From Escherichia coli (lineage in GTDB: Bacteria > Pseudomonadota > Gammaproteobacteria > Enterobacterales > Enterobacteriaceae), in the NCBI RefSeq assembly GCF_011045215.1, contig NZ_CP049201.1: a stretch of 64,000 nucleotides of DNA, one strand, 5' to 3'. Below the pieces are notes generated by a model. The model saw only the letters and a program-made list of their open reading frames with translations, was not told where the DNA came from and made no database searches. The position numbers and the translations under genes were made by a program. Numbering within the stretch: the stretch's first letter is position 1; every line of letters starts with the position of its first letter. Of this stretch, positions 2,888-59,167 are shown piece after piece.

Positions 2888-4367
2888 CACCATTCCGTCG
2901 AATACGCTGGTTCCGTTGTTTTATGCGGAAATGGATAACTCGGCGGCGAATACTGCACAGGACAGCGGAGCATCGCTGCTGATTGGTCATGCCAATAACG
3001 GTGCAGAGATTGTTGCCAACAGTCTGGTACTGATGCCGTCGGCAGACTATGCACGCCAGATTTGTGGTGCGGGAAGTCAGCTGGCGCGTATGGTCGAGGC
3101 TTATCGCCAGACCGACCCGTTTGGTGAGCTGTATGTGATTGCCGTTCCTGAATCCACAGGCGCGGCGGCAACGGTTACGCTGACGGTGACCGGGGCGGCA
3201 ACCGAAACCGGCACGGTGAATGTCTATGTGGGACGTACCCGCGTGCAGGCTCCGGTGACCAACGGCGATAACGTCACGACGATTGCCAGCAGTATCAAAG
3301 ATGCCATCAATGCCGTTCCGGCCCTGCCGTTTACGGCTTCATCTTCGGCAGGCGTGGTCACACTGACCGCGCGTCATAAGGGGCTTTGCGGGAATGAAAT
3401 TCCTGTCAGCCTCAATTACTACGGCTTTGGTGGGGGCGAAGTGCTGCCAGCGGGCGTACAGATTGCCGTGGCGACGGGTACCGCCGGAACGGGTGCTCCG
3501 GTTCTCACCGGCGCGGTGGCTGCAATGGCGGATGAGCCGTTTGATTATATCGGCCTGCCGTTCAACGACACGGCCTCCGTTAACACGCTGATGACCGAGA
3601 TGAACGATACCAGCGGTCGCTGGAGCTATGCGCGTCAGCTGTATGGTCATGTGTATACGGCAAAGATCGGCACGCTGTCAGAACTGGTGACCGCAGGTGA
3701 CCAGTTTAACCAGCAGCACATTACCCTGGCGGGGTACGAAAAAGAGACCCAGACGCCTGCCGACGAACTGGCGGCAAGCCGTACCGCCCGCGCAGCGGTG
3801 TTTATTCGCAACGATCCGGCACGTCCCACGCAGACCGGTGAGCTGGTGGGTATGCTGCCTGCGCCGAAGGGGAAACGGTTCACGATGACCGAACAACAGA
3901 CCCTGCTGTCTCATGGCGTGGCAACGGCGTATGTCGAAAGCGGGGTACTGCGCATTCAGCGTGATGTCACCACGTACAGGAAAAACGCTTACGGGGTTGC
4001 GGATAACAGCTACCTAGACAGTGAGACTCTGCATACCAGCGCGTATGTACTGCGCAAACTGAAATCCGTCATTACCAGTAAGTACGGGCGTCACAAGCTT
4101 GCCAGTGACGGTACCCGCTTTGGTCCCGGTCAGGCGATTGTCACCCCGGCGGTGATCAAAGGGGAACTGCTGGCAACCTACCGTCAGCTTGAGCGTGCGG
4201 GGATCGTGGAAAACTACGCACTGTTTAAGCAGTACCTAGTTGTGGAGCGTGATGCCAGCGATCCGAACCGCCTGAACACGCTGTTCCCGCCTGACTATGT
4301 TAACCAGTTGCGTGTCTTTGCCGTGGTTAACCAGTTCCGTCTTCAGTATTCAGAGGAGTCCGCATAA
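2871..4367 (+). CDS. phage contractile tail sheath protein
   Basis: 498 aa; size and sequence character typical of Mu/P2-type sheath proteins; followed by tube and chaperone genes. Confidence 0.9.
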   Translation: MTISFNTIPSNTLVPLFYAEMDNSAANTAQDSGASLLIGHANNGAEIVANSLVLMPSADYARQICGAGSQLARMVEAYRQTDPFGELYVIAVPESTGAAATVTLTVTGAATETGTVNVYVGRTRVQAPVTNGDNVTTIASSIKDAINAVPALPFTASSSAGVVTLTARHKGLCGNEIPVSLNYYGFGGGEVLPAGVQIAVATGTAGTGAPVLTGAVAAMADEPFDYIGLPFNDTASVNTLMTEMNDTSGRWSYARQLYGHVYTAKIGTLSELVTAGDQFNQQHITLAGYEKETQTPADELAASRTARAAVFIRNDPARPTQTGELVGMLPAPKGKRFTMTEQQTLLSHGVATAYVESGVLRIQRDVTTYRKNAYGVADNSYLDSETLHTSAYVLRKLKSVITSKYGRHKLASDGTRFGPGQAIVTPAVIKGELLATYRQLERAGIVENYALFKQYLVVERDASDPNRLNTLFPPDYVNQLRVFAVVNQFRLQYSEESA

Positions 4368-4723
4368 TGGCCCGTATCGGGGGAACCTGTTATTTCAAAA
4401 TTGACGGTCAGCAGCTATCGCTGACCGGCGGCATTGAGGTGCCCATGAACAGGACGGTCAATGATGACATCATCGGCCTGGACGGTTCAGTGGACCGCAA
4501 GGAAACTCACCGTGCGCCTTATGTCAAAGGGACCTTCAAGGTGCCGAAGAATTTTCCGGTGAGCAAAATCACCTCGTCTGATGAGATGACCATCACTGCC
4601 GAGCTGGCGAACGGTCAGGTCTATGTACTGTCGTCTGCCTGGCTGCACGGCGAAGCGAACCATAATGCCGAAGAAGGCACGGTCGATCTTGAGTTCCACG
4701 GTGAAGAAGGGGATTACCAGTGA
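4367..4723 (+). CDS. phage tail tube protein
   Basis: 118 aa, coupled to the sheath gene by overlapping stop/start. Confidence 0.8.
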   Translation: MARIGGTCYFKIDGQQLSLTGGIEVPMNRTVNDDIIGLDGSVDRKETHRAPYVKGTFKVPKNFPVSKITSSDEMTITAELANGQVYVLSSAWLHGEANHNAEEGTVDLEFHGEEGDYQ

Positions 4724-32254: not shown

Positions 32255-32485
32255 ATGAATACTATCTGTTCTTTAATTGTTGTGGTTACACTGTCTTTAT
32301 TATCATTCAGTAGCGTCGCCAAAACGATTACTGCCGTCGGTTCAACCATTGACAGCACTGAAAAAGAAATTTCTTTACAGGCAGAAAAACAAGGGAAATC
32401 ATATAAAATTCTGGGCGCGTTTTTTAAGAACAGAGTTTATATGATAGCAAAGTTAACACCAGTCAGTAAAAATGATGCTTCATAA
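32255..32485 (+). CDS. DUF1471 (YdgH/BhsA/McbA-like) small secreted protein
   Basis: Signal peptide MNTICSLIVVVTLSLLSFSSVA, about 76 aa; CAGGAG SD 8 nt upstream. Confidence 0.55.
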   Translation: MNTICSLIVVVTLSLLSFSSVAKTITAVGSTIDSTEKEISLQAEKQGKSYKILGAFFKNRVYMIAKLTPVSKNDAS

Positions 32486-43559: not shown

Positions 43560-44270
43560 TCAGTCCGCCGAAGGGGGCTTAGCCGGACAGGAATCGCTAA
43601 TCTTAATGAATTTGTCGTTATAGACCAAATAATGATTCCCCGGCTGACGTAACTCAGGCTGATGAACCACGTCTCCCGGACGTAGATACCAGGCATCGCC
43701 TTCCTCTTCGGTCGAATCACATCCTGGTTTAATCAATAGCTTAAACCACGTGTTGCCGATGTTACTTACCGTTCCTGTCACCTGGTCGAAGGACCATTTA
43801 AACTGGACCTGACGTGGTCGTACTACCAGAATGGTATCCATCACCACCACCGGCTCCGTGCTGACCTCGCCGCCGGTTGGGCTGCGTCTTGTCTGGTTAC
43901 GAGTGGGGACCTCGCGAAATGAGACCCGGTAGTAGCGCTCGCGGTTATCCTGTGGACCATGATAGTAAAATTTAAAATACTCGCTCTCACCAGCCTGCAA
44001 CGCCAGCTGGCGGGGGGCGAAAAGCAGTTCACCATCCACCGGTCGGGTGCGCAATTCACTGCTGCCCGGGCTATCAATAGCACTGATGGCAATACGGTAT
44101 ATCCGTGCGCTTTTGTTGTTATTCACTACACGTTTGCTGACAAAGTCAGTCTCGGACGGCAGTGAAAAAGTCAGATTGCCGACCGAAATCGCCTGTGTCA
44201 AAGGTGCCGCCAGCATACAGACCGCTGTCAGCAGGGCCTTAGTTAATGTTACGCCACGTCGCCTGAACAT
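43560..44270 (-). CDS. ecpE: E. coli common pilus chaperone EcpE
   Basis: Signal peptide starting [27 protein letters not shown]; last gene of the ecp operon; start taken at the internal Met of the track ORF. Confidence 0.8.
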
Positions 44271-45882
44271 GAATTTCTCCTGAAGCGCTGACTTCGCCAA
44301 ACCAGCCGTTATCATCTACCGTACGCAGCGAAATGGCGTTATCCATTGGAATCGAAAATTTGACTGTGGTCTTATCCATCTGCCCCACTTCGCCAGAGAT
44401 ATCAGTCCACGGTGTGGTCAGCCACAGCGCATCGGTCATATCCCGCCAGCTATCATCGCACCCGGCATCGTAGGTTTTTGTAGCTCCGTTGCGAGTAATA
44501 AAGGAAAGCGTCGCCGGGAACGGTACTTTCGCCTTACCGTCATCGGAGCTGAAGACACAATAGGAGCGCCCGCCAATCACCTGCGCGGGTCCGGTCACCT
44601 TGATCAGCACTTCGTCGGCAGCTGTTTTACCGCTGGTGGTTACGATATAGCCGAAATCGAGTGCCGACTCGCCGCTGCCGACATATCCCTCCCGCGACGG
44701 TGTCTGAGTATATTCATCGGAGATAATACTGATGCTGAAATCACGGGGTTTGATAAGCAGCGTGTTGGAGGTAGAAAATTCATACCAGCCAGACTCCGGT
44801 GATGTGGTGTTCTGAAAGCGAAAGTTGAATAGATCTTTGGTGTTGATATCGCTGATCCCGAGGTTCACCATCTGCTTAAAGAAGTTGCTCGAGAAGAAAA
44901 CATAGATCGAGTCTGCGCTCTTCATCTCGTTGAAGGTGTAGTAATAGGCAGTATTGCTCACCGGTTTCCATGAACTGCCATTCAGACTGAACTGCATATC
45001 GTACGCCCCGACGGCCGAGGCTAATGATGAGTTGGCGATCGCCGGGAATATATGGATTGAGATGTTGCTGAGTCCGTTTGTTTGCAGGGTGTAGTTGACC
45101 ATCTTACAACTTAATCCTGAAAGGCTGCCGATGGTTTGCGTCCGGCAGTCGGCGTTCCCTTCGCCCAGAGTCGGTACTCCGTCGCTGTTGATAAATACCT
45201 CCGCCAGCGAGTGGGTATTTATTAACCGCAGATTTGCTGCTTTCGTATGGGTGACATTGCGAACATACCAGTTTCCGGAGGCCTGATCCTTACAACGCGC
45301 GCCGCTGCTGGCGTCATAGTTCACAGAGGTCTGACAGGTATTGATGGTCATTGTAAAGCTGCTGCCGACGGGCATTTGTTGCATATACTGGTAAAACGCG
45401 TCTGACAACATGCCGTGCATCCATTTCGCGCCGCCGCTGGTCACCGTCGCGCCATAAAATCCACTGGCGTCGGTGGTTTGCGGCAGGATAAGACTGGTGG
45501 TCATATTACACCCTGCGTACCAGTTGATGCAGCGTAAGCCAGTTAAAGGAGATGAAACCGGCGAATTTTCCAGCCACATATCAAACTTCCAGTTGGTATA
45601 GAGGCCGGTGTTGTAACCGTTATCAATGTAGCCGAGGCTTTGTTGATAAATGGTTCCTGAGCCAGTGTATTTTAAACCGGTCCAGCGGTTGGCACCGGTC
45701 AGGCGCGGATCCAGCGCCCCGCCAGGCGTGACGAAAAAGTTGTCGTCTGAGTTGTTTTCGACAAACACAAACTCGCTTGCCGGTGCATCCGCCCAGGTTG
45801 TTTTGCTCACTGCCGCTCTGAGCGCAGTTACTGGCCAGATTAGCGCGAAAATTATCATCGTTATTAGTAGGTTAACTCTCAT
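44239..45882 (-). CDS. ecpD: E. coli common pilus tip adhesin EcpD
   Basis: 547 aa with signal peptide; operon position. Confidence 0.85.
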
Positions 45883-48397
45883 TCTCTTCTCCTGTCTGCG
45901 TCACCGCCGCCCACGATGAGAGGCCGCTGCAGACCACATCACCGACCCAGACGGCACCGCGCGCCTGGTTGAGTTCCAGAGCCACTTCGCAGGTTTTATT
46001 GCCACTGTAGCGAAAATCGATAGTGGGGTATTTCTTATCCACGTCCATGACAAACTCGCCGTTTTCATCGGTTCGGGTTCGGCCGATATGGTTGTTAATC
46101 CGTGCGTTAGCCAGCAGTGTGCCGTCTTCCGCACGGATACGACCGGAGACGGTAACCATCTGCTTCACCTCTGGCTCAATGACAGCGACATTGCCTGGAT
46201 AGAGAGTCAGATGACTTTTGCGGCCGCTGACGATATCGTAACTGTCGAGTGAGTTTTTGCTGTTCTGTAACTCCACCTCATATCTTCCATAGGGAGAGAG
46301 CGGGAGATAGTTACGCTTGCCGTGAAGCGGGAAAATCCGCCCGTTGATTTTGGCGCTGATCTGACCGTCGTCCTCCAGCCCGGTGTTGAATATCACCCCA
46401 GCGTTGCCATCAGTCCGCCCGCTGGCAGCAATGTTTTTACCCTGCCAGCCGACGCTGCCATTGGCGGTTAAATTGGTATTGACGTAGCCGTCCGCCGCGC
46501 TATTGACGTTCAGCGTTCCGCTGGCGTAGCGAGCGTCGAACTGTGCATACGCCCCACCACTGAGAGTTTTGTCATCACCTGTATCGCCGGAGATGGCTCG
46601 TGACAGATTGGCACCAACAGTGCGAATGGTCCCTTCATCAAACTGCTTGCATGCTGACAGGTTTGCCATGGTGTAGCCGTTTTGATGAGTCATCCCTGCG
46701 CTAAACCAGTTGCCCAGTGGTAGCGAGAGATCGAGAGCGATATATTTCCCTGTATTGGCGTTGCTGTCGCCGTTGTTATAGCGCTGAATACCGGCCCGCA
46801 GGCCAAGCGAACCAAAGGGACCGCTGTAGACATTTTGATAGTAATCTGCCGTGTAATAATGGCTGTTGTAACGGCGGTCATCATTGTAGCTGATGCTGAA
46901 TGTGCCCAGCTTCGACCACAGTGAGTTCAGGTTGAGTGTGCCGCCGATTGCACGGTTGTCGGCATCGCTACGTCGCAATTGATTGCCAATGCGGGTTTTT
47001 TCCTGGTTAACCCACAGCGAACTAAAGCCTCCCGGTAGAGTGGCGCTGATGCTGGCGATGTTGCTCCATGAGCTGTCACTGGCCAGCATATTTTGCAGGT
47101 TAACGTTGATCGCTCCCCCAAGCGGCAGCGTCAGACGGGTTTCACCCACCGCCTGATTATCGTATCCATATCCCGTTGCCGCCCAGCTAAGCGTACTCAG
47201 TGAGCCGGAGGTCGAGGCACCTGCCAGCCAACTCTCTTTAGCTGGTCGCGTCTTTTTCCCGTTTTCCGACCAGCGATCCATATGAAAGCTACCGCCCCAT
47301 ATCTGCCACGCCAGTGGTGCACCGACGCCGCGCCCCCGGCTAAACAGCTTATTGACCCGCTGGGTGCGTTTGCTGATCACGCGACCGTTAACGATCACCT
47401 CAACTTCCACATCGTAAATACCGTACGGTAGACCCCGGGTATCCACTTCATGATTGCCCATAGTGAAGTTCTGAACGCTTAGTAGCCGCCCATCACGGGT
47501 GAGATGTACTTCACCCGCCGCCGGTAAAAAGGCGATCACTGGCGTGGCTGACTGGCTGCTGTCGAAGATGGTGGAGCTGGCCTGGTTTCCCCAGGAAAGG
47601 CCGTAAATCTTCCCTGCTGAAATGGCGGTCATCGGCCCTAAGGACTGCAAGTTCCAGGTGTCGAGCATTCCACCGGCAAATCGGTGACCGGCAAAATCGC
47701 GTTCATACATCGCTTTATATAATTCACTGTCCTGTTGACCGCTACCGATCCCGTACAGCGAGCCGTCGAGCACCACATGATGTTCGCGCAGTGCAGTAAC
47801 GTTATTCAGCGACAGATAGCTGGATGTGTTGCTCCCGCCGTTACGCAACTGGTTGTTATAGATGCCGAAGTTATAGCTCAGATTACTGCTGAGGGTGTTA
47901 ACACTGGACTGCCCGATGTCTTCGCTACGTGAGCGTAGTACAGTGCCCAGCGCTTCGCGCTTGACCACCAGCTGCAGCAGCAGTTGGCGCAAGCTGAGAT
48001 CCAGCTGCGCGTTGTCAGTCAGGGGGATGGTAAGGGCCTCATTGAACGGGGCGTTCGCCAGAGCCATCAGCTGCTGTCGAGTTTGTTCGCTGACACTGGC
48101 GTTATCTTCACTCTCTTCCAGCTGTATTTTCCGGATGCGTAGCTGTCCATCATCCAGCCAGATAAAAGCGCTGCCGATTCGCTGATCGTCCTGGCGACCC
48201 TGGCTACCGGCGAGATGAATATAAAGCGGGACGCTCATGCCGTCCTGGAGCGCCTGACTGAAGGCCTGCGGAATAATCACCCCACCTATTTGCTGCGCAC
48301 TTATGTCAGCAGCGCTGGCATCGGGCTGAACGAACAAAAAGACCATGCCGAAGGCAAACTGGGCTTTCAGTCCTGGGGAGAACAGTCGTAAAGGCAT
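45872..48397 (-). CDS. ecpC: E. coli common pilus usher EcpC
   Basis: 841-aa outer-membrane usher-sized protein; operon position. Confidence 0.85.
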
Positions 48398-48422
48398 TGT
48401 CGTTATCCATCTGCACAGCTAT

Positions 48423-49091
48423 CTATTTCACGGGAATGAACTTATCACCCTGCCAAAGTGCAACCCGTCCTTTGTTATCCGCAGTGTCCACGCGGGTAAA
48501 ACGACGCGACTTGCCCGGCATCAGGTAGTAATTCTCTTTACACTCCTTACCGTTGGCGGCTTTCAGGCAAGGGCCGTAGGCGAGGATCCGCAGCGTCGCA
48601 TTTCCTGTATTTGTCAGGGAGCCGTTGGCGTACTGAAAGTGGTAGTTCGCCTGGCGAGGGGCGACGACCAGAATGGTGCCGATGCGGGCGGAAGCAGTGG
48701 CCACAGCGCTGCGGTTGGCATTATCGCGCTGCGCATCACTGAGGGCCTGATCAAACCAGACAATGCGGTAGTAGCGCTCTTTTTCATCTGCGGGTCCCTT
48801 ATAGAAGAAGCGGATCACTTCGCTGGCTTGGGCGGGTAGCAGCAAGCTGGCGGGAGTGAGTAGCAACTCATCCGGCTTGTCCATTGAGATAACCTGCCCG
48901 TCGTCAAGCGGTGAAGAGAGCCGTTCGAGACGGATATTGATAAGGCGACCACTGTCGGTACTGTTTTTGATCGTTTTGCTCAGCGTGCTGCTGTCACTGT
49001 TCATAAACGATGATATATCGCCGACATCCAGCGCCTGGGCCGGAGATATTCCGGAAAACAGCAGAGCGAGAGGCAGAAGGTGCTTTTTCAT
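48423..49091 (-). CDS. ecpB: E. coli common pilus chaperone EcpB
   Basis: 222 aa with signal peptide; operon position. Confidence 0.85.
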
Positions 49092-49148
49092 AACAATTCC
49101 GTCCAGGAATAAAGCAGGGGGGCTACCCCTGCTGGTACATCAGAGAGA

Positions 49149-49736
49149 TTAACTGGTCCAGGTCGCGTCGAACTGTACGCTAACGTCGCCGCTCCAGATG
49201 CCTTCCGGTAGAGTGCTGTAGTCGGTTACTGCGGTGGTACCATTGGTGGTGCCGCTGATGATGGTGAAGGTGAAACCATCCTGTGCAGTGGTACGATTGC
49301 TGGCATTGTAACCGTTAGCCAGCGGGCTAAGGTTGCCGCCCAGTACGCCGTTGGCGGTATCGATCATCACGGTATCGCCAGTTTTTTCGACTGCCGCGCC
49401 GTTATAATCCACGCCCACATTCAGTGTGGAACCTGAGGTATCCAACTGGGTTAATGTGTTGGTGATAAGACGTGAGGTCAGTTTAAAGGCGGTAGCCGTT
49501 GAGTCACCTTCGATAGCCACGTCAAATAGACCTTTCTGTGAGTTAAAACCTTTAATGCCTTCGGCATACTGGAACGCCAGGCTACCGAGTGGCGTCACAA
49601 CCAGCTTACTGGTGGTGTCTTTTTTGGCTGTTGCCGACCAGGTCGCTACAGCCTGAGCTGTTACGTCAGCAGCCTGCGCCACACCCATGCCGGTAAACAC
49701 CGTTACCAGAGCTATTGCCAGAACCTTTTTTTTCAT
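49149..49736 (-). CDS. ecpA: E. coli common pilus major pilin EcpA (MatB)
   Basis: 195 aa, signal peptide [22 protein letters not shown], Thr/Ser-rich pilin. Confidence 0.9.
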
Positions 49737-49810
49737 TGCATTTCTTCCCGAGTTGAATTGAGGACGTGATGTCCCAGTGAGTCATTTTTTAAAACTAACT
49801 TGCCTGGAGT

Positions 49811-50422
<612 letters not shown>

Positions 50423-51176
50423 TTACAGGTGCATTCAGTTTCCTTAGTAAACCGGAAGTAAATAAGATACGTAGTACATATCAATAAAGGTTAAACGAGA
50501 TTAAGTTTAATTATTTTCGATTGGGCTTAAATTTATGTTTTTTTCCCGATGAGTGTCAATATGTGAACGAAAAAGGAATTCAATGGTTAAGTCAATATTT
50601 AGAAAAAACTGAAAATATTGCTTTTTTGATAAGAAGAAAAAGACATTTAGTTTCATAAGGTTATTGGCAATATAACGTTCATTTCTTACTTGCATTTTAT
50701 ATTGGTCAGGAACTTTGCCCTGAAGTGTTAGGAATAGTCTTAATGCGCTGTGTGATGGACTAGTAAAAAAACAAGTTTTAACGGTAAGGGATAGAATATA
50801 AAACTATGATGAGCTGTCATTGAAGATGATTTGCCAATCAGTAAGATATTTTAATGGATTAACATGCCGCACAAAATGGTTACAGGTGTTCATTCCAATA
50901 AGTGATGGAAAATTGAATGGGCGTATGTACGTCATCTGTTCGGTAAGCCCCCAAGAGCCAGATTAAGTGAAGTTAAACGAAGGCTGCCAGCTGTCACAGG
51001 AACGATGGCCTCTTTGTCAGGGCACTGAGTGCAGTTATCTGTGCGCCTTACTCTAACTGGCACTCGAACGTCGGCGACGGGGGTACCGGTGGATCAGACT
51101 GTTCCTGTGGCGTAAACGTTTTTATGTTAGTACCAACAGATTTACCACATTTATCATCTTAACAGTTTGAGTGAAA

Positions 51177-51404
51177 ATGCAGGCTGCGCCGCAAAGGGAG
51201 GAGACTGAGTGGCGTGTTCAGTCTAAAAGAGAGTTGATGCCAGCATACAGGGGCGAAGCTGGTCAACAAGTCAACATTAAGATAATGGAATATTCGGAGA
51301 GAAACGTCAGGCAGTTGGCCTCAAATGAACAGGAAGAATATATCCGCAGGAAAATTAATGTTGGTGTTATAAACACACCAACATTAAACCGATCTGATTA
51401 TTAA
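51177..51404 (+). CDS. hypothetical small protein (ykgL-position ORF)
   Basis: ORF between ecpR and ykgO; first ATG at 51177 (track ORF begins with GTG 51171); no motif recognised. Confidence 0.3.
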   Translation: MQAAPQREETEWRVQSKRELMPAYRGEAGQQVNIKIMEYSERNVRQLASNEQEEYIRRKINVGVINTPTLNRSDY

Positions 51405-51438
51405 TCAGACAAATATCGTTAATTCGTCGAATTTTAAA

Positions 51439-51579
51439 TCAACGTTTTTTCTTACGACCCTGAACGGCCTTAAAACGTGGATTAGATTTACAAATCACAT
51501 ATAGCCGTCCTTTTCGCTTCACAATCTGACAGTCTGGATGGCGTTCTTTTGCGGTACGAAGAGAGTTAAGAACTTTCAT
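51439..51579 (-). CDS. ykgO: ribosomal protein L36 paralogue (zinc-independent type), YkgO/RpmJ2
   Basis: 46 aa [46 protein letters not shown]; ATG overlaps the ykgM stop (ATGA); below the ORF-track size cut-off. Confidence 0.85.
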
Positions 51580-51842
51580 CACGCCCCCTTTTTCGTGCTA
51601 ACAAAACGACCAAAACGTTGGGTGAATCGTGCAACATTTCCTTCTGATGCCACTGTTCTCAGCTTCCCTGTATAGAACGGGTGCGATTTAGAAGAGACAT
51701 CAATTGTCACGTATGGATACGTTACGCCATCCAGCTCAATCTCACGGTCTGTTTTGATAGTCGAGCCGATTTTAAAGTACTCATCAACACTGGTGTCGTG
51801 GAACACCACAGTACGATACTCAGGATGGATATTGGGTTTCAT
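51579..51842 (-). CDS. ykgM: ribosomal protein L31 paralogue type B, YkgM/RpmE2
   Basis: [59 protein letters not shown]...; start taken at the ATG for MKPNIH. Confidence 0.85.
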
Positions 51843-51853
51843 CATTTTCACCT

Positions 51854-51871
51854 GTTATGTTATAACATAAC
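51854..51871. promoter_or_regulatory. Zur box upstream of ykgM-ykgO
   Basis: Perfect 18-bp palindrome GTTATGTTATAACATAAC, 12 bp upstream of ykgM; matches the Zur operator form and the known Zur control of this operon. Confidence 0.7.
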
Positions 51872-52159
51872 CGTAAAGATACATGCTCATCCGGATCATT
51901 TCAACACCCAATCCCTGTGACCCTTTGTGGATGTGGAATTTCCGCAACGGGGAACTCTGGCATTGTTAGCAGCCGTTGGCGACGCTCCCATAAACGCCTG
52001 GATGAGTGATTGATGATGGTTTTGCTGAGAGTATGGATTTTTCGAGAATGGAGGTTATCTCCACTTTACTGGCCGATGATTTATCGCAGTATGATTGATT
52101 ACCTGACAGCGTGTATTCCTCTCCCACGGATATAATAATTACTTACAAAAAGGGAGAGG

Positions 52160-52225
52160 ATGCATATTTTAAATATCACTGAAGTGAACAGTTTATTGCC
52201 GTTATTAATAGAAATGGAGAAATAA
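52160..52225 (+). CDS. putative 21-codon small ORF (MHILNITEVNSLLPLLIEMEK), copy B
   Basis: GGGAGAGG-ATG; the peptide is conserved with copy A despite nucleotide substitutions. Confidence 0.3.
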   Translation: MHILNITEVNSLLPLLIEMEK

Positions 52226-52779
52226 ATAGGCGTATTCTACAATTGCGACAAAAACAACGATATTAATCAGTTTATGACTGATTTGTTGTACTTTATTCTC
52301 TTTCATTGGTACTTCCTCGCTTTAAAAAAGAGCGCACTTCGTAAGTGCCCTTATATAAATAACGAGTTTGGTCAACCAATTTTTTGACATGTATCACAAA
52401 TTTGAATAGATGTATTACATCGGCTATCTTTTATTGCACCAACGTCATTGATATATGTCGCCTGAAGTCAGTTCCGGGAATGAGTCTGATCTCAAGACTG
52501 GCCCAGTCCTGGCGTTGATTGGCGCTGAGGAGCATATCGCATCTCATTATAATGTCGTATCTCCTGGGGTGTTATACAAGATATCGTTGTTGGTAACCTG
52601 GGCGAGGAATTGAGCTCTATTAAACCGTCAACTATGCCGGATACATACTGGATTACACTGAAGGCACGCCTTATGAGAGAACGTGCCGCAGTGACGGGTT
52701 AATTATCTGAAAGAATTTGTGAGGCTGTATCGGTTACTCATTGATTTGATAGTTTTACTCTCGGGAGAGTAATAGATAT

Positions 52780-53922
52780 TTAATCCATTAACGGAAACCA
52801 GCCAGTTCCTTTCGATGCCTGAATTTGATCCCATAGTTTATCCGGAATGGTTAATTCAGGAACAAGTTGTGGATTAAGGGTTGTTTGAATTTCATGGCCT
52901 CTACCTGATTCAGCTAAAGTCACCCATTCTGGATTTATCACCAGCCCTTTACCGATCGCAACAAGTGGCAGGCCAGTGGAAATTGCTTCTTGAGCCTGAG
53001 ACGGTGTGCGTATTTTACCTGCAGCGATTACCGGCACTCTGCCTGCAATATGATTTAAAATCAATTCAATAGTTCGGGGGCCATTTGGCGACTCAACAGG
53101 GTAGCTATCGTTAATACTGACCAGCGAGGTATGTATATACGAAATACCGGATGAAATGAGCCGATCAAGGAGTTTATAAGTATCCTCTATCCGCAGCCCC
53201 CCTGTTGCAGATTCTTCAGGAGATATTCTGTAACCGATGGCAAAGGGCTTTGTCGCATATTCATAGACTACATTTTTTACTTCCTGTAATACGGCCAGCG
53301 GGAAGCGCATACGTCCTTCGAGATCTCCTCCCCATCGGTCATTACGCTGGTTAAATAGAGGGGAGAAGAAATTCTGTAGAAGGAATCCGTGCGCACCATG
53401 AAGTTCAATGCCATCAAAACCTGCTTTAATCGCCCTTTTTGTGACATCTCCGAATGCTCTAATGGTTTCCTGAATTTCGTTTTCAGTCATTTCCCTGCTT
53501 TGTACCACTCTCTTCATAAAGTCACCAGATTTTACGCTTGATGCGCTGGCACTAATAACATCGTTATTTGGTACAAGCTCCGGGATGGCTTTATTACCGG
53601 CGTGGAAAATCTGCAAAATAGCCGGAGCACCCCCACTTTTGGCTGCCGCTGCTAACTTTTCAAGGCTGTTAATGAAACGGTCGTCATACGCGGCAAATTC
53701 ATGAGTAAACCCAATGCCGCTTGGCGTGACATAGGTACATCCTGTTATTACTAAACCAACATTTTGTGAGCGGCGTTTATAAAATTCGAGTTCTTGCTCA
53801 GAGATGGTTCCATCAGGATTCGCTGACCAGGTCGTCATAGGAGCCATAACGATACGATTACGTAGCTTTATTTTTTCTGTCAGCATAAAAGGAGAAAACA
53901 ATGATGGGTGTTTATTTGTCAT
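52780..53922 (-). CDS. Old Yellow Enzyme family NADH:flavin oxidoreductase
   Basis: 380 aa; sequence character of the OYE/NemA-like TIM-barrel flavoenzymes. Confidence 0.8.
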   Translation of the reverse strand: MTNKHPSLFSPFMLTEKIKLRNRIVMAPMTTWSANPDGTISEQELEFYKRRSQNVGLVITGCTYVTPSGIGFTHEFAAYDDRFINSLEKLAAAAKSGGAPAILQIFHAGNKAIPELVPNNDVISASASSVKSGDFMKRVVQSREMTENEIQETIRAFGDVTKRAIKAGFDGIELHGAHGFLLQNFFSPLFNQRNDRWGGDLEGRMRFPLAVLQEVKNVVYEYATKPFAIGYRISPEESATGGLRIEDTYKLLDRLISSGISYIHTSLVSINDSYPVESPNGPRTIELILNHIAGRVPVIAAGKIRTPSQAQEAISTGLPLVAIGKGLVINPEWVTLAESGRGHEIQTTLNPQLVPELTIPDKLWDQIQASKGTGWFPLMD

Positions 53923-54156
53923 AACAATACCTCAAATGTTTATCTGATTTTGATGCGTATGTTTTAACTGGTTAGTTGTTGCCAGCTTTGGAACCAAGAG
54001 TTCTGGCTTTATTTATAATCCCTTTAAAGGGTTTCTAATAATTGAGTTGCTGCTTTTTTGTTTTTTAATGAAATTTCTTTTTGAGTAATTTTATTATTGT
54101 TGTGTAGTCAATAAAGGATAAATGTCAGGGAGATAAGGAATCTCCCTGTAAAATTA

Positions 54157-55077
54157 TTACAAATGTGTTTTATAAAAAGGAATTAATTTATCGAGTGCCT
54201 GTTTTACAGGTTCTGGCTTATCATACAGGTCGTAATGTGAATAACCTTCAACCACGACCAGCTCTTTATGTTTTGAAGCAGCGCGGCCAATAATTTCGCA
54301 GCCGTCACGGTAGGCACCAAATGCGCCCACTCTATCGCCCACCACAACCATTATTGGTTGAGTTAACAGGACTTCTGCAAGATGAAATGCATCCCAACCC
54401 ACGGCAACAGTCTGATGTGAGAATAGCGAACGATTTACCCCATTAGGTGCATAGCCTCGTGGCGAACGATAATATTCTGTGGCTTCAAAAAGGTCTATTT
54501 CTGTTAATCCCGCTTCAAGAGCTGCATCCGGAGAAGAGGGGAGTAAATCATCTACGCGAAGTTTTGCGCCGTTAGCTTCGTCTGTTCTTTGTTGCGCCAT
54601 TGCTTCGAGTGCTCCGATAGGATTAAACGCTGTAAATCCCTCACGCATAAGACGCCCGTAGTTTGCACCCGTGACAGTACCAATAGCTTTAATTCGACGT
54701 TCTGTCATTGCGGCATTAATGGCATATCCACCTCCACCACAAATACCCAGTACACCAATACGCCCGGCATCAACGTAAGGTAAGCTGGTAAGGTAATCAA
54801 CGACAATGCTGAAGTCTTTTACTCGCATTGTTGGATCTTCCAGATAACGCGGTTCCCCACCGCTGCTTCCCTGAAAACTGGCATCAAAAGCAATGACGAT
54901 AAAGCCAGCTTTTGCCAGGGCGGCACCATACACACTACCCGATGTCTGTTCTTTGCAGCTTCCAATTGGATGGGCGCTGATAATGGCAGGATACTTTTTT
55001 TCACTATTAAAATCGTCAGGGAAATAGATATCAGCAGCTATATCCCAGTAAGTGTGTTTTATCGAAACAGTTTTCAT
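54157..55077 (-). CDS. alpha/beta-hydrolase-fold protein (dienelactone-hydrolase-like)
   Basis: 306 aa; GICGGGG nucleophile-elbow-like motif; paralogous in pattern to 34236-35393 but lacks a signal peptide. Confidence 0.7.
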   Translation of the reverse strand: MKTVSIKHTYWDIAADIYFPDDFNSEKKYPAIISAHPIGSCKEQTSGSVYGAALAKAGFIVIAFDASFQGSSGGEPRYLEDPTMRVKDFSIVVDYLTSLPYVDAGRIGVLGICGGGGYAINAAMTERRIKAIGTVTGANYGRLMREGFTAFNPIGALEAMAQQRTDEANGAKLRVDDLLPSSPDAALEAGLTEIDLFEATEYYRSPRGYAPNGVNRSLFSHQTVAVGWDAFHLAEVLLTQPIMVVVGDRVGAFGAYRDGCEIIGRAASKHKELVVVEGYSHYDLYDKPEPVKQALDKLIPFYKTHL

Positions 55078-55233
55078 TTCAAGCTCCGGGGATTTGCCTA
55101 AACAGATTTAAATATCATTTCTATTATCCGCAACTGGCATTTGTGTTCATATCGAGAACGGCGTAATAGTATGACTTGTATTGGTTATCATCAATGGTCT
55201 AATATCTATCACAGTGTTAAGTTAAGGTTTACA

Positions 55234-56160
55234 ATGATGAAAATAGAGCCTTCAATTTTGCCTTCTCTTGCCTGGTTTGCGCTTATTGTTCGTGCCGGCA
55301 GTTTTTCCAGAGCCGCTTCTGAAATGGGTATTACGCGGGCCGCATTGTCCCAGAATTTAAAATCTCTTGAGGAACGTCTTAACACCAAGCTGATATACCG
55401 TACGACCCGCAATATGTCGCTTACTGAGGAAGGACAGCGTCTGTATGAAGTGCTGGTGTCGGCTTTGGGGCAAATTGATGATGCTTTGAAAGATGTTGGT
55501 GATACCCAACTTGAACCTACAGGCCTGTTGAGAATAAATTCCTCCCGTGTTGCAGCACGGATGCTTGTTGAGCCTCATATTGGCGAGTTTCTTACTCGTT
55601 ACCCCAAAACAAAGATAGAACTCATTATGGATGACGGTTTATCTAACATTATTGCGGACGGCTGTGATGTGGGCATACGTCTTGAGCAAGGACTGGATGA
55701 GCATATGACTGCCGTTCCTGTTGCTCCGCTTATTAAACTGGTTACTGTGGCATCGCCAGATTATTTAAAAGAACACGGTATTCCTGAAACGCCTCAGGAA
55801 CTGAGTAACCATAATTGCCTTCGGTTGCGGCATAAAAGTAGCGGTGCACTCTCTGCATGGGAGTTTTCTAATGTTGCGGGCGGGAATGAAGAGTTCGAAA
55901 TAGAGGTTTCAGGTAAGTATATTTCTAATGATGACGAAAGCATGATACGAATGGCGCTGAATGGAACGGGTATCATTCAACATCTGGATTTTGCAATCGC
56001 TGAACATATCAATGCGGGCAAGTTACAGCCGATTCTTGAGGATTGGGCTGTTTCATTTCCTGGATTTTATATTTATGTTTCATCACGGGTGAGAATGCCC
56101 TCTAAAGTTCGTGCTTTTATTGATTTTATGGTGGAGAAAAGAGTAAAACTCGAAAATTGA
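55234..56160 (+). CDS. LysR-family transcriptional regulator
   Basis: HTH ...FSRAASEMGITRAALSQNLKSLE...; start taken at the ATG for MMKIEPS. Confidence 0.8.
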   Translation: MMKIEPSILPSLAWFALIVRAGSFSRAASEMGITRAALSQNLKSLEERLNTKLIYRTTRNMSLTEEGQRLYEVLVSALGQIDDALKDVGDTQLEPTGLLRINSSRVAARMLVEPHIGEFLTRYPKTKIELIMDDGLSNIIADGCDVGIRLEQGLDEHMTAVPVAPLIKLVTVASPDYLKEHGIPETPQELSNHNCLRLRHKSSGALSAWEFSNVAGGNEEFEIEVSGKYISNDDESMIRMALNGTGIIQHLDFAIAEHINAGKLQPILEDWAVSFPGFYIYVSSRVRMPSKVRAFIDFMVEKRVKLEN

Positions 56161-56300
56161 TGATATGTGTCAGAATATCGGTAAGAAGAATGGCGCAATC
56201 GTGAGGATACGTTTATTCATAATAAATCTCCTGAAAGTTTAGAATTATTTTCGATACAGCCAGATTATCATTGTTACTAATAATGTGGCTAAAATAATAG

Positions 56301-59167
<2,867 letters not shown>

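Follow-up and report, generated by a model that had tools for sequence, protein, structure and literature searches.

The ykgM-ykgO locus of an Escherichia coli genome: genes for the type B ribosomal proteins bL31B and bL36B and their Zur operator

Results

Gene content of the locus

The stretch of E. coli DNA analysed here, 64 kb long and called the window below, carries on its minus strand two adjoining genes for ribosomal protein paralogues. The first, ykgM (51842..51579; ATG at 51842, stop TGA at 51581-51579), encodes the 87-aa type B, zinc-free 50S ribosomal protein L31 (bL31B), and the second, ykgO (51579..51439; ATG at 51579-51577, stop at 51441-51439), encodes the 46-aa type B 50S ribosomal protein L36 (bL36B). 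The ecp operon with ecpR (43560-50401) and the plus-strand gene ykgL (51171-51404), which is convergent to ykgO, lie on one side. The other side holds ykgR (52205-52306, minus strand), which in the RefSeq E. coli annotation encodes a 33-aa small membrane protein (MKENKVQQISHKLINIVVFVAIVEYAYLFLHFY), then an accessory island of about 6.6 kb (52780-59152), and fdeC from 59718 onward. The island holds genes for an NADH-dependent flavin oxidoreductase, an alpha/beta hydrolase, two LysR regulators and two aldo/keto reductases; K-12 and DH5alpha lack it, and it is found with at least 80% coverage in 1,784 of 5,426 complete E. coli genomes. An Rfam scan of the whole window returned nothing at the ykgMO locus, its sole match being IS009 (RF02111; 42681-42879, plus strand) with 189.4 bits for a gathering score of 117.

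As the preliminary description of this DNA had pointed out, ykgO is hidden by the 60-aa cut-off of the default open reading frame list, which contains three ORFs between 51300 and 52400 and not this one. The 46-codon gene that had been placed after ykgM was recovered, running from the ATG at 51579 to the stop at 51439, and RefSeq annotates the same gene. The cut-off thus conceals real, conserved small genes (ykgO with 46 aa and ykgR with 33 aa), and the same list includes a spurious 79-aa ORF that starts with GTG at 51681-51920 on the plus strand. This ORF is an antisense shadow of ykgM, crossing the Zur box and the promoter, and we found no annotation or family evidence for it as a gene. As a discovery the ykgMO case carries little weight; its practical lesson is methodological.

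When the threshold was lowered to 20 aa, ykgM was listed as a 90-aa ORF (51579..51851) beginning at an in-frame GTG at 51851, and ykgO as a 47-aa ORF (51439..51582), likewise from GTG. Since the list takes as a start the first ATG, GTG or TTG after the preceding stop codon, this mechanical extension mis-set the start codons of both genes. In the RefSeq annotations of E. coli DH5alpha and XH990, the start of ykgM corresponds to the ATG at 51842 and that of ykgO to the ATG at 51579. The former lies 6 nt after AGGTG (51849..51853, minus strand), which we read from the sequence as the Shine-Dalgarno motif of ykgM, whereas the alternative ATG at 51845 follows this motif by just 3 nt. The GTG at 51851 falls inside AGGTG and is missing in K-12, where the motif reads AGGTA. 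A purine-rich block is also kept at this place in the cross-species profile. On the grounds of the RefSeq starts, the Shine-Dalgarno spacing and the absence of the GTG from K-12, we accept ATG 51842 as the start of ykgM and adopt 51842..51579 and 51579..51439 as the extents of the two genes.

YkgM and YkgO as type B paralogues of L31 and L36

The alignment to L31 and L36 paralogues, on which the preliminary description had staked its reading, supports it for both proteins. YkgM scored 87.1 bits against Pfam PF01197 (Ribosomal_L31) and 122.9 bits against NCBIfam NF002462 (type B 50S ribosomal protein L31), above the cut-off of 86 for membership, and it remained under the cut-offs (70) of the type A L31 equivalog models NF000612 and NF001809. 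YkgO scored 68.6 bits against Pfam PF00444 (Ribosomal_L36) and 91 bits against NCBIfam NF002021 (type B L36), for which membership requires 70. Residues 1-68 of YkgM match chain D7 ('L31 type B') of the solved E. coli ribosome PDB 6i7v at 100% identity, residues 1-45 of YkgO are 100% identical to chain C5 of the same entry ('L36 2'), and other type B L31 chains in the PDB come from several species. The YkgM protein is moreover identical to WP_000803998.1 of E. coli XH990. The match to chain D7 indirectly suggests that YkgM would occupy the L31 site in the ribosome.

To compare the zinc ligands, we used E. coli L31A and L36A reference sequences that match PDB chains exactly. In the alignment to L31A, the four cysteines C16, C18, C37 and C40 are replaced in YkgM by T, V, S and S, and YkgM has a 12-residue insertion and no cysteine at all. 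YkgM thus shows both marks of a type B L31: the CxC...CxxC zinc ligands of L31A are gone, and there is an extra loop. A cysteine-free YkgM is found in 78 of 80 orthologues (the 81 sequences being the 80 related loci plus the window, with one locus omitted). In YkgO the loss is partial. Compared with the L36A ligands C11, C14, C27 and H33, C11 is replaced by H14 and H33 by F36, and C14 and C27 are kept as C17 and C30, so that two of the four ligands are replaced and the zinc-ribbon set is incomplete. His14, Cys17 and Cys30 occupy three of the four positions that hold zinc ligands in L36A; from Escherichia to Vibrio, 80 to 81 of 81 orthologues have these same residues.

The ykgM-ykgO junction and the 3' end of the operon

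The minus-strand sequence of the junction is ...GGG GCG TGATG AAA GTT..., and in the TGATG (51577..51581) the stop codon of ykgM and the start codon of ykgO share base 51579. An ATGA overlap had been reported for this junction; this proved incorrect, the overlap being of 1 nt and not 4 nt. The letters ATGA do occur there, but their TGA is out of the ykgM frame. RefSeq likewise has a 1-nt overlap (ykgO 4140-4280, ykgM 4280-4543), and a true ATGA junction is found in E. albertii. The 3' end of ykgM contains a G-rich, Shine-Dalgarno-like run, AAGGGGG (51590-51584), 4 nt ahead of the start codon of ykgO.

In each of the 80 related loci described below, tblastn placed ykgO directly downstream of ykgM and on its strand; a regular-expression search for ykgO had missed most of them, most orthologues starting MQV and not MKV. 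The junctions range from -4 to +5 nt in 73 of the 80 loci. The sole exception to the tight junction is Brenneria sp. 4F2, which has a 197-nt spacer. The tight junctions and the AAGGGGG run are consistent with translational coupling, and ykgO translation is probably coupled to that of ykgM through TGATG.

A terminator scan detected a terminator-like hairpin at 51355..51387 on the minus strand, 52 nt past the ykgO stop, with a 13-bp stem followed by TTTTCCTG. The 111-nt region that contains it folds at -31 kcal/mol (z = -4.84), and none of 200 shuffled sequences was equally stable. We infer that this putative terminator ends the ykgMO transcript. The hairpin sequence also belongs to the 3' coding end of ykgL, the convergent gene, in which it encodes ...INVGVINTPTL..., and could serve both convergent transcripts.

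The palindrome upstream of ykgM and its match to the Zur box

The intergenic region upstream of ykgM contains a perfect 18-bp palindrome, GTTATGTTATAACATAAC, at 51854-51871. No other inverted repeat was found in 51780-52000, and no perfect palindrome in the window is longer, the only other one of at least 14 bp being at 32363-32376. Its last base is at -12 relative to the ykgM ATG, with 11 nt (51853-51843) in between, and both the palindrome and the distance of 12 bp had been described correctly beforehand. Palindromes of at least 18 bp arose in 17 of 100 first-order Markov simulations of 64 kb with the same composition, so that the length by itself is not remarkable at the scale of the window. 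The significance of the site as an operator rests on its position and its motif match, not on the length of the palindrome.

The palindrome forms the core of a Zur operator, or Zur box, at 51853..51872. The structure-based Zur box TGWNAYRWTATAWYRTNWCA is matched here at 19 of 20 positions, including the central TATA. The scan for a Zur motif that had been proposed as a check gave, at no more than one mismatch, this single match in the window, and no match in any of 100 dinucleotide-preserving shuffles. The two-dimer skeleton RNNNYRNNRYNNYRNNNY is matched by the palindrome at 18 of 18 positions; on its own it is uninformative, with 468 matches in the window. The older 23-bp proteobacterial (Panina-type) consensus GAAATGTTATANTATAACATTTC was not matched anywhere in the window when three mismatches were allowed. 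Its best match has six mismatches, and its four best matches in the window all lie at the ykgM operator; the poor fit is explained by the even-centred symmetry of the ykgM site. We rejected GAAATGTTATANTATAACATTTC as a membership criterion since the K-12 operator, a proven Zur site with an identical 20-mer, does not pass it either; for even-centred Zur sites this consensus is a poor guide.

The 20-mer at 51853-51872 is identical to the PL31p operator of K-12, for which Zur binding has been measured, and the proposed fit of the palindrome to a Zur operator is thereby upheld. At PL31p, Zur binds cooperatively with a Kd-app of 0.025e-18 M^2 and represses 560-fold in vivo, and this is the tightest Zur operator measured in K-12 (PMC4219657).

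A predicted promoter next to the operator

A consensus scan placed a candidate sigma-70 promoter at 51876..51904 on the minus strand, with a -35 hexamer TTGAAA (51904-51899), a 17-nt spacer and a -10 hexamer TATCTT (51881-51876) that ends 4 nt upstream of the palindrome. The consensus scan alone performs at chance level (2 promoters found, 2.7 expected). However, in 79 orthologous upstream regions, information-content peaks were observed at TTG and TAnnnT with the same spacing, which supports the predicted placement of the -35 and -10 hexamers. The expected transcription start would fall inside the upstream half of the Zur box. No extra conserved elements were seen upstream of the -35 hexamer in the information-content profile across genera.

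Published work further notes that ykgMO is induced when cells enter stationary phase, although zinc stays constant (PMC9959377), which suggests that Zur may not be its sole control. No conserved upstream element that would explain this induction was seen in the orthologue profile.

Conservation of the operator and the gene pair

A search with YkgM, restricted to one genome per species, yielded 80 loci from Escherichia, Citrobacter, Kluyvera, Enterobacter, Klebsiella, Salmonella, Serratia, Photorhabdus, Brenneria, Vibrio and Pseudoalteromonas. A Zur box with at most two mismatches is present within 60 nt upstream of the ykgM ATG in 78 of them; the best box within this distance has no mismatch in 5 loci, one in 58, two in 15 and three in 2. 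The distance from the end of the box to the ATG ranges from 9 to 25 nt and is 11 to 13 nt in 70 loci. No box with up to two mismatches was found elsewhere in the 80 loci (about 507,000 positions, both strands). When the sequences were anchored on the box, information content was highest over the box itself, with smaller peaks at TTG, TAnnnT and the Shine-Dalgarno motif. Outside the genus, the left half-site and the centre keep their sequence, and the outer right arm of the palindrome varies without compensating changes.

Within E. coli, the 701-bp ykgMO segment is present in 5,061 of 5,426 complete genomes, annotated as ykgM, ykgO and ykgL. None of the 5,426 matches 51300-52000 at 99% or more, the best reaching 98.3% with 12 differences over 701 bp, a small sample; complete E. 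coli genomes come closer to the flanks, with up to 99.4% identity on the left and 99.3% on the right. The window is thus E. coli-like, yet identical to none of these complete genomes. The ecp-ykgMO segment (44000-52000) was also encountered at 13 places on E. coli plasmid records, and these copies may be chromosome-derived inserts or mis-assigned replicons.

Discussion

Taking these data together, we are nearly certain that the locus is the Zur-controlled ykgMO operon, which encodes bL31B and bL36B, the L31 and L36 paralogues without the zinc-binding motif. Nothing in the sequence contradicts this. All of this is already known: the operon, with its Zur operator and its contribution to zinc economy, has been described since the early 2000s and characterised structurally and thermodynamically, and its promoter has been used as a calprotectin biosensor. 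The preliminary description was right to call the feature well known.

When zinc is sufficient, zinc-loaded Zur would bind the palindromic operator as a dimer of dimers, in agreement with the published finding that Zn-Zur binds the operator in this form and represses the operon (PMC4219657). The operator lies between the predicted -10 hexamer and the Shine-Dalgarno motif. The Zur footprint is about 30 bp (PMC4219657), and a footprint of this size centred at 51862/51863 would span approximately 51848-51877, so that binding would cover part of the -10 region, the start site, the 5' end of the leader and the Shine-Dalgarno motif. Such coverage would keep RNA polymerase off, that is, it would repress by promoter occlusion. 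When zinc is scarce, Zur would lose its zinc and leave the DNA, and the operon would be transcribed. YkgM and YkgO would then replace L31 and L36 in ribosomes, which would lower the demand for zinc and may free some of it. YkgM and YkgO do enter ribosomes at the L31 and L36 sites (PMC9959377). In E. coli Nissle, zinc chelation by calprotectin induces ykgM about 2,500-fold and ykgO about 1,000-fold, and recent published work describes repression of rpmE translation by bL31B (L31p).

Two qualifications of the Zur-controlled switch deserve mention, although we see only a slim chance that either of them applies. The residues retained by YkgO at three of the former ligand positions raise the possibility that bL36B may still weakly bind metal or sense redox, in which case the switch would, on its L36 side, be more than a plain exchange for a metal-free protein. 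The second and weaker possibility concerns the substitutions at 51873 and 51849 relative to K-12, which might alter Zur affinity or ykgM translation in the lineage of the window. The first lies just upstream of the box and the second in the Shine-Dalgarno motif (AGGTG in the window, AGGTA in K-12). Both flank the box core within the published 30-bp footprint, and the change at 51849 gives a stronger Shine-Dalgarno match as well as the in-frame GTG from which the 90-aa ykgM ORF was called.

Readings in which the site is not a Zur operator fare far worse. All boxes of the Fur family consist of AT-rich inverted repeats whose half-sites resemble one another, and the palindrome could on that account serve another Fur-family member such as the iron sensor Fur, or an unrelated regulator. 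However, the Fur consensus GATAATGATAATCATTATC is unmatched in the window at up to three mismatches. The window operator does have the central TATA, which according to the Zur-DNA structure paper is specific to the Zur box and absent from the Fur box (PMC4219657). The genes that it would control encode zinc-free paralogues, the canonical Zur regulon. Control by such a regulator in place of Zur is thus hardly credible.

We give just as little credence to the notion that the palindrome is no DNA operator and instead affects translation or stability as an RNA hairpin in the 5' leader. A 51-nt stretch does fold at -9.2 kcal/mol, but this is unexceptional (z = -1.49, with 17 of 200 shuffles folding equally well), and the stem is A-U rich and unpaired with the Shine-Dalgarno motif. 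The predicted transcription start inside the palindrome would moreover leave the full hairpin untranscribed, and the outer right arm varies in other genera without the compensating changes that would maintain a stem. The idea that the palindrome arose by chance in AT-rich intergenic DNA and has no operator function, with ykgMO controlled elsewhere, draws on the simulated frequency of palindromes of this length (17 of 100) but is effectively refuted, its probability being negligible, by the 19-of-20 match that no shuffle reproduced and by the box, which recurs at this place in 78 of the 80 loci and is found nowhere else in them, to which are added its position within 12 nt of the start codon and the binding of Zur in vitro to the identical K-12 sequence (PMC4219657).

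The Zur-controlled ykgMO operon of the window can be set most directly beside ykgM-ykgO of K-12 (b0296/b4506) with PL31p. Gene order, strands and neighbours are the same (ecpR, ykgL, ykgO, ykgM, ykgR, then fdeC), and K-12 shares an identical YkgO, the 20-bp operator, the 1-nt TGATG junction and the -35 and -10 hexamers. The two differ by 14 substitutions over 51300-52300, among them those at 51873 and 51849; YkgM ends in ...KKGA in the window and in E. coli XH990 but in ...KKGS in K-12, and the window has the 6.6-kb island between ykgR and fdeC.

The other Zur operators of E. coli, those of znuABC, zinT and pliG, follow the same TGWNAYRWTATAWYRTNWCA pattern, in which TATA forms the centre and RNNNY repeats accommodate two Zur dimers (PMC4219657); none of them lies within the window. 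Unlike these operators, the ykgM site is a perfect palindrome. The ykgM and zinT operators form a high-affinity, strongly repressed class, with 560-fold repression at ykgM compared to 7- to 8-fold at znuC and pliG (PMC4219657). Further afield, B. subtilis ytiA/rpmEB, the altRP operon of Mycobacterium and rpmE2 of Neisseria follow the same logic, in which a zinc-ribbon protein is replaced by a cysteine-free paralogue under Zur, but their gene sets and Zur-box sequences differ from those of ykgMO. A type B L36 gene placed right after a type B L31 gene, as in the window and all 80 related loci, is the enterobacterial and gammaproteobacterial arrangement.
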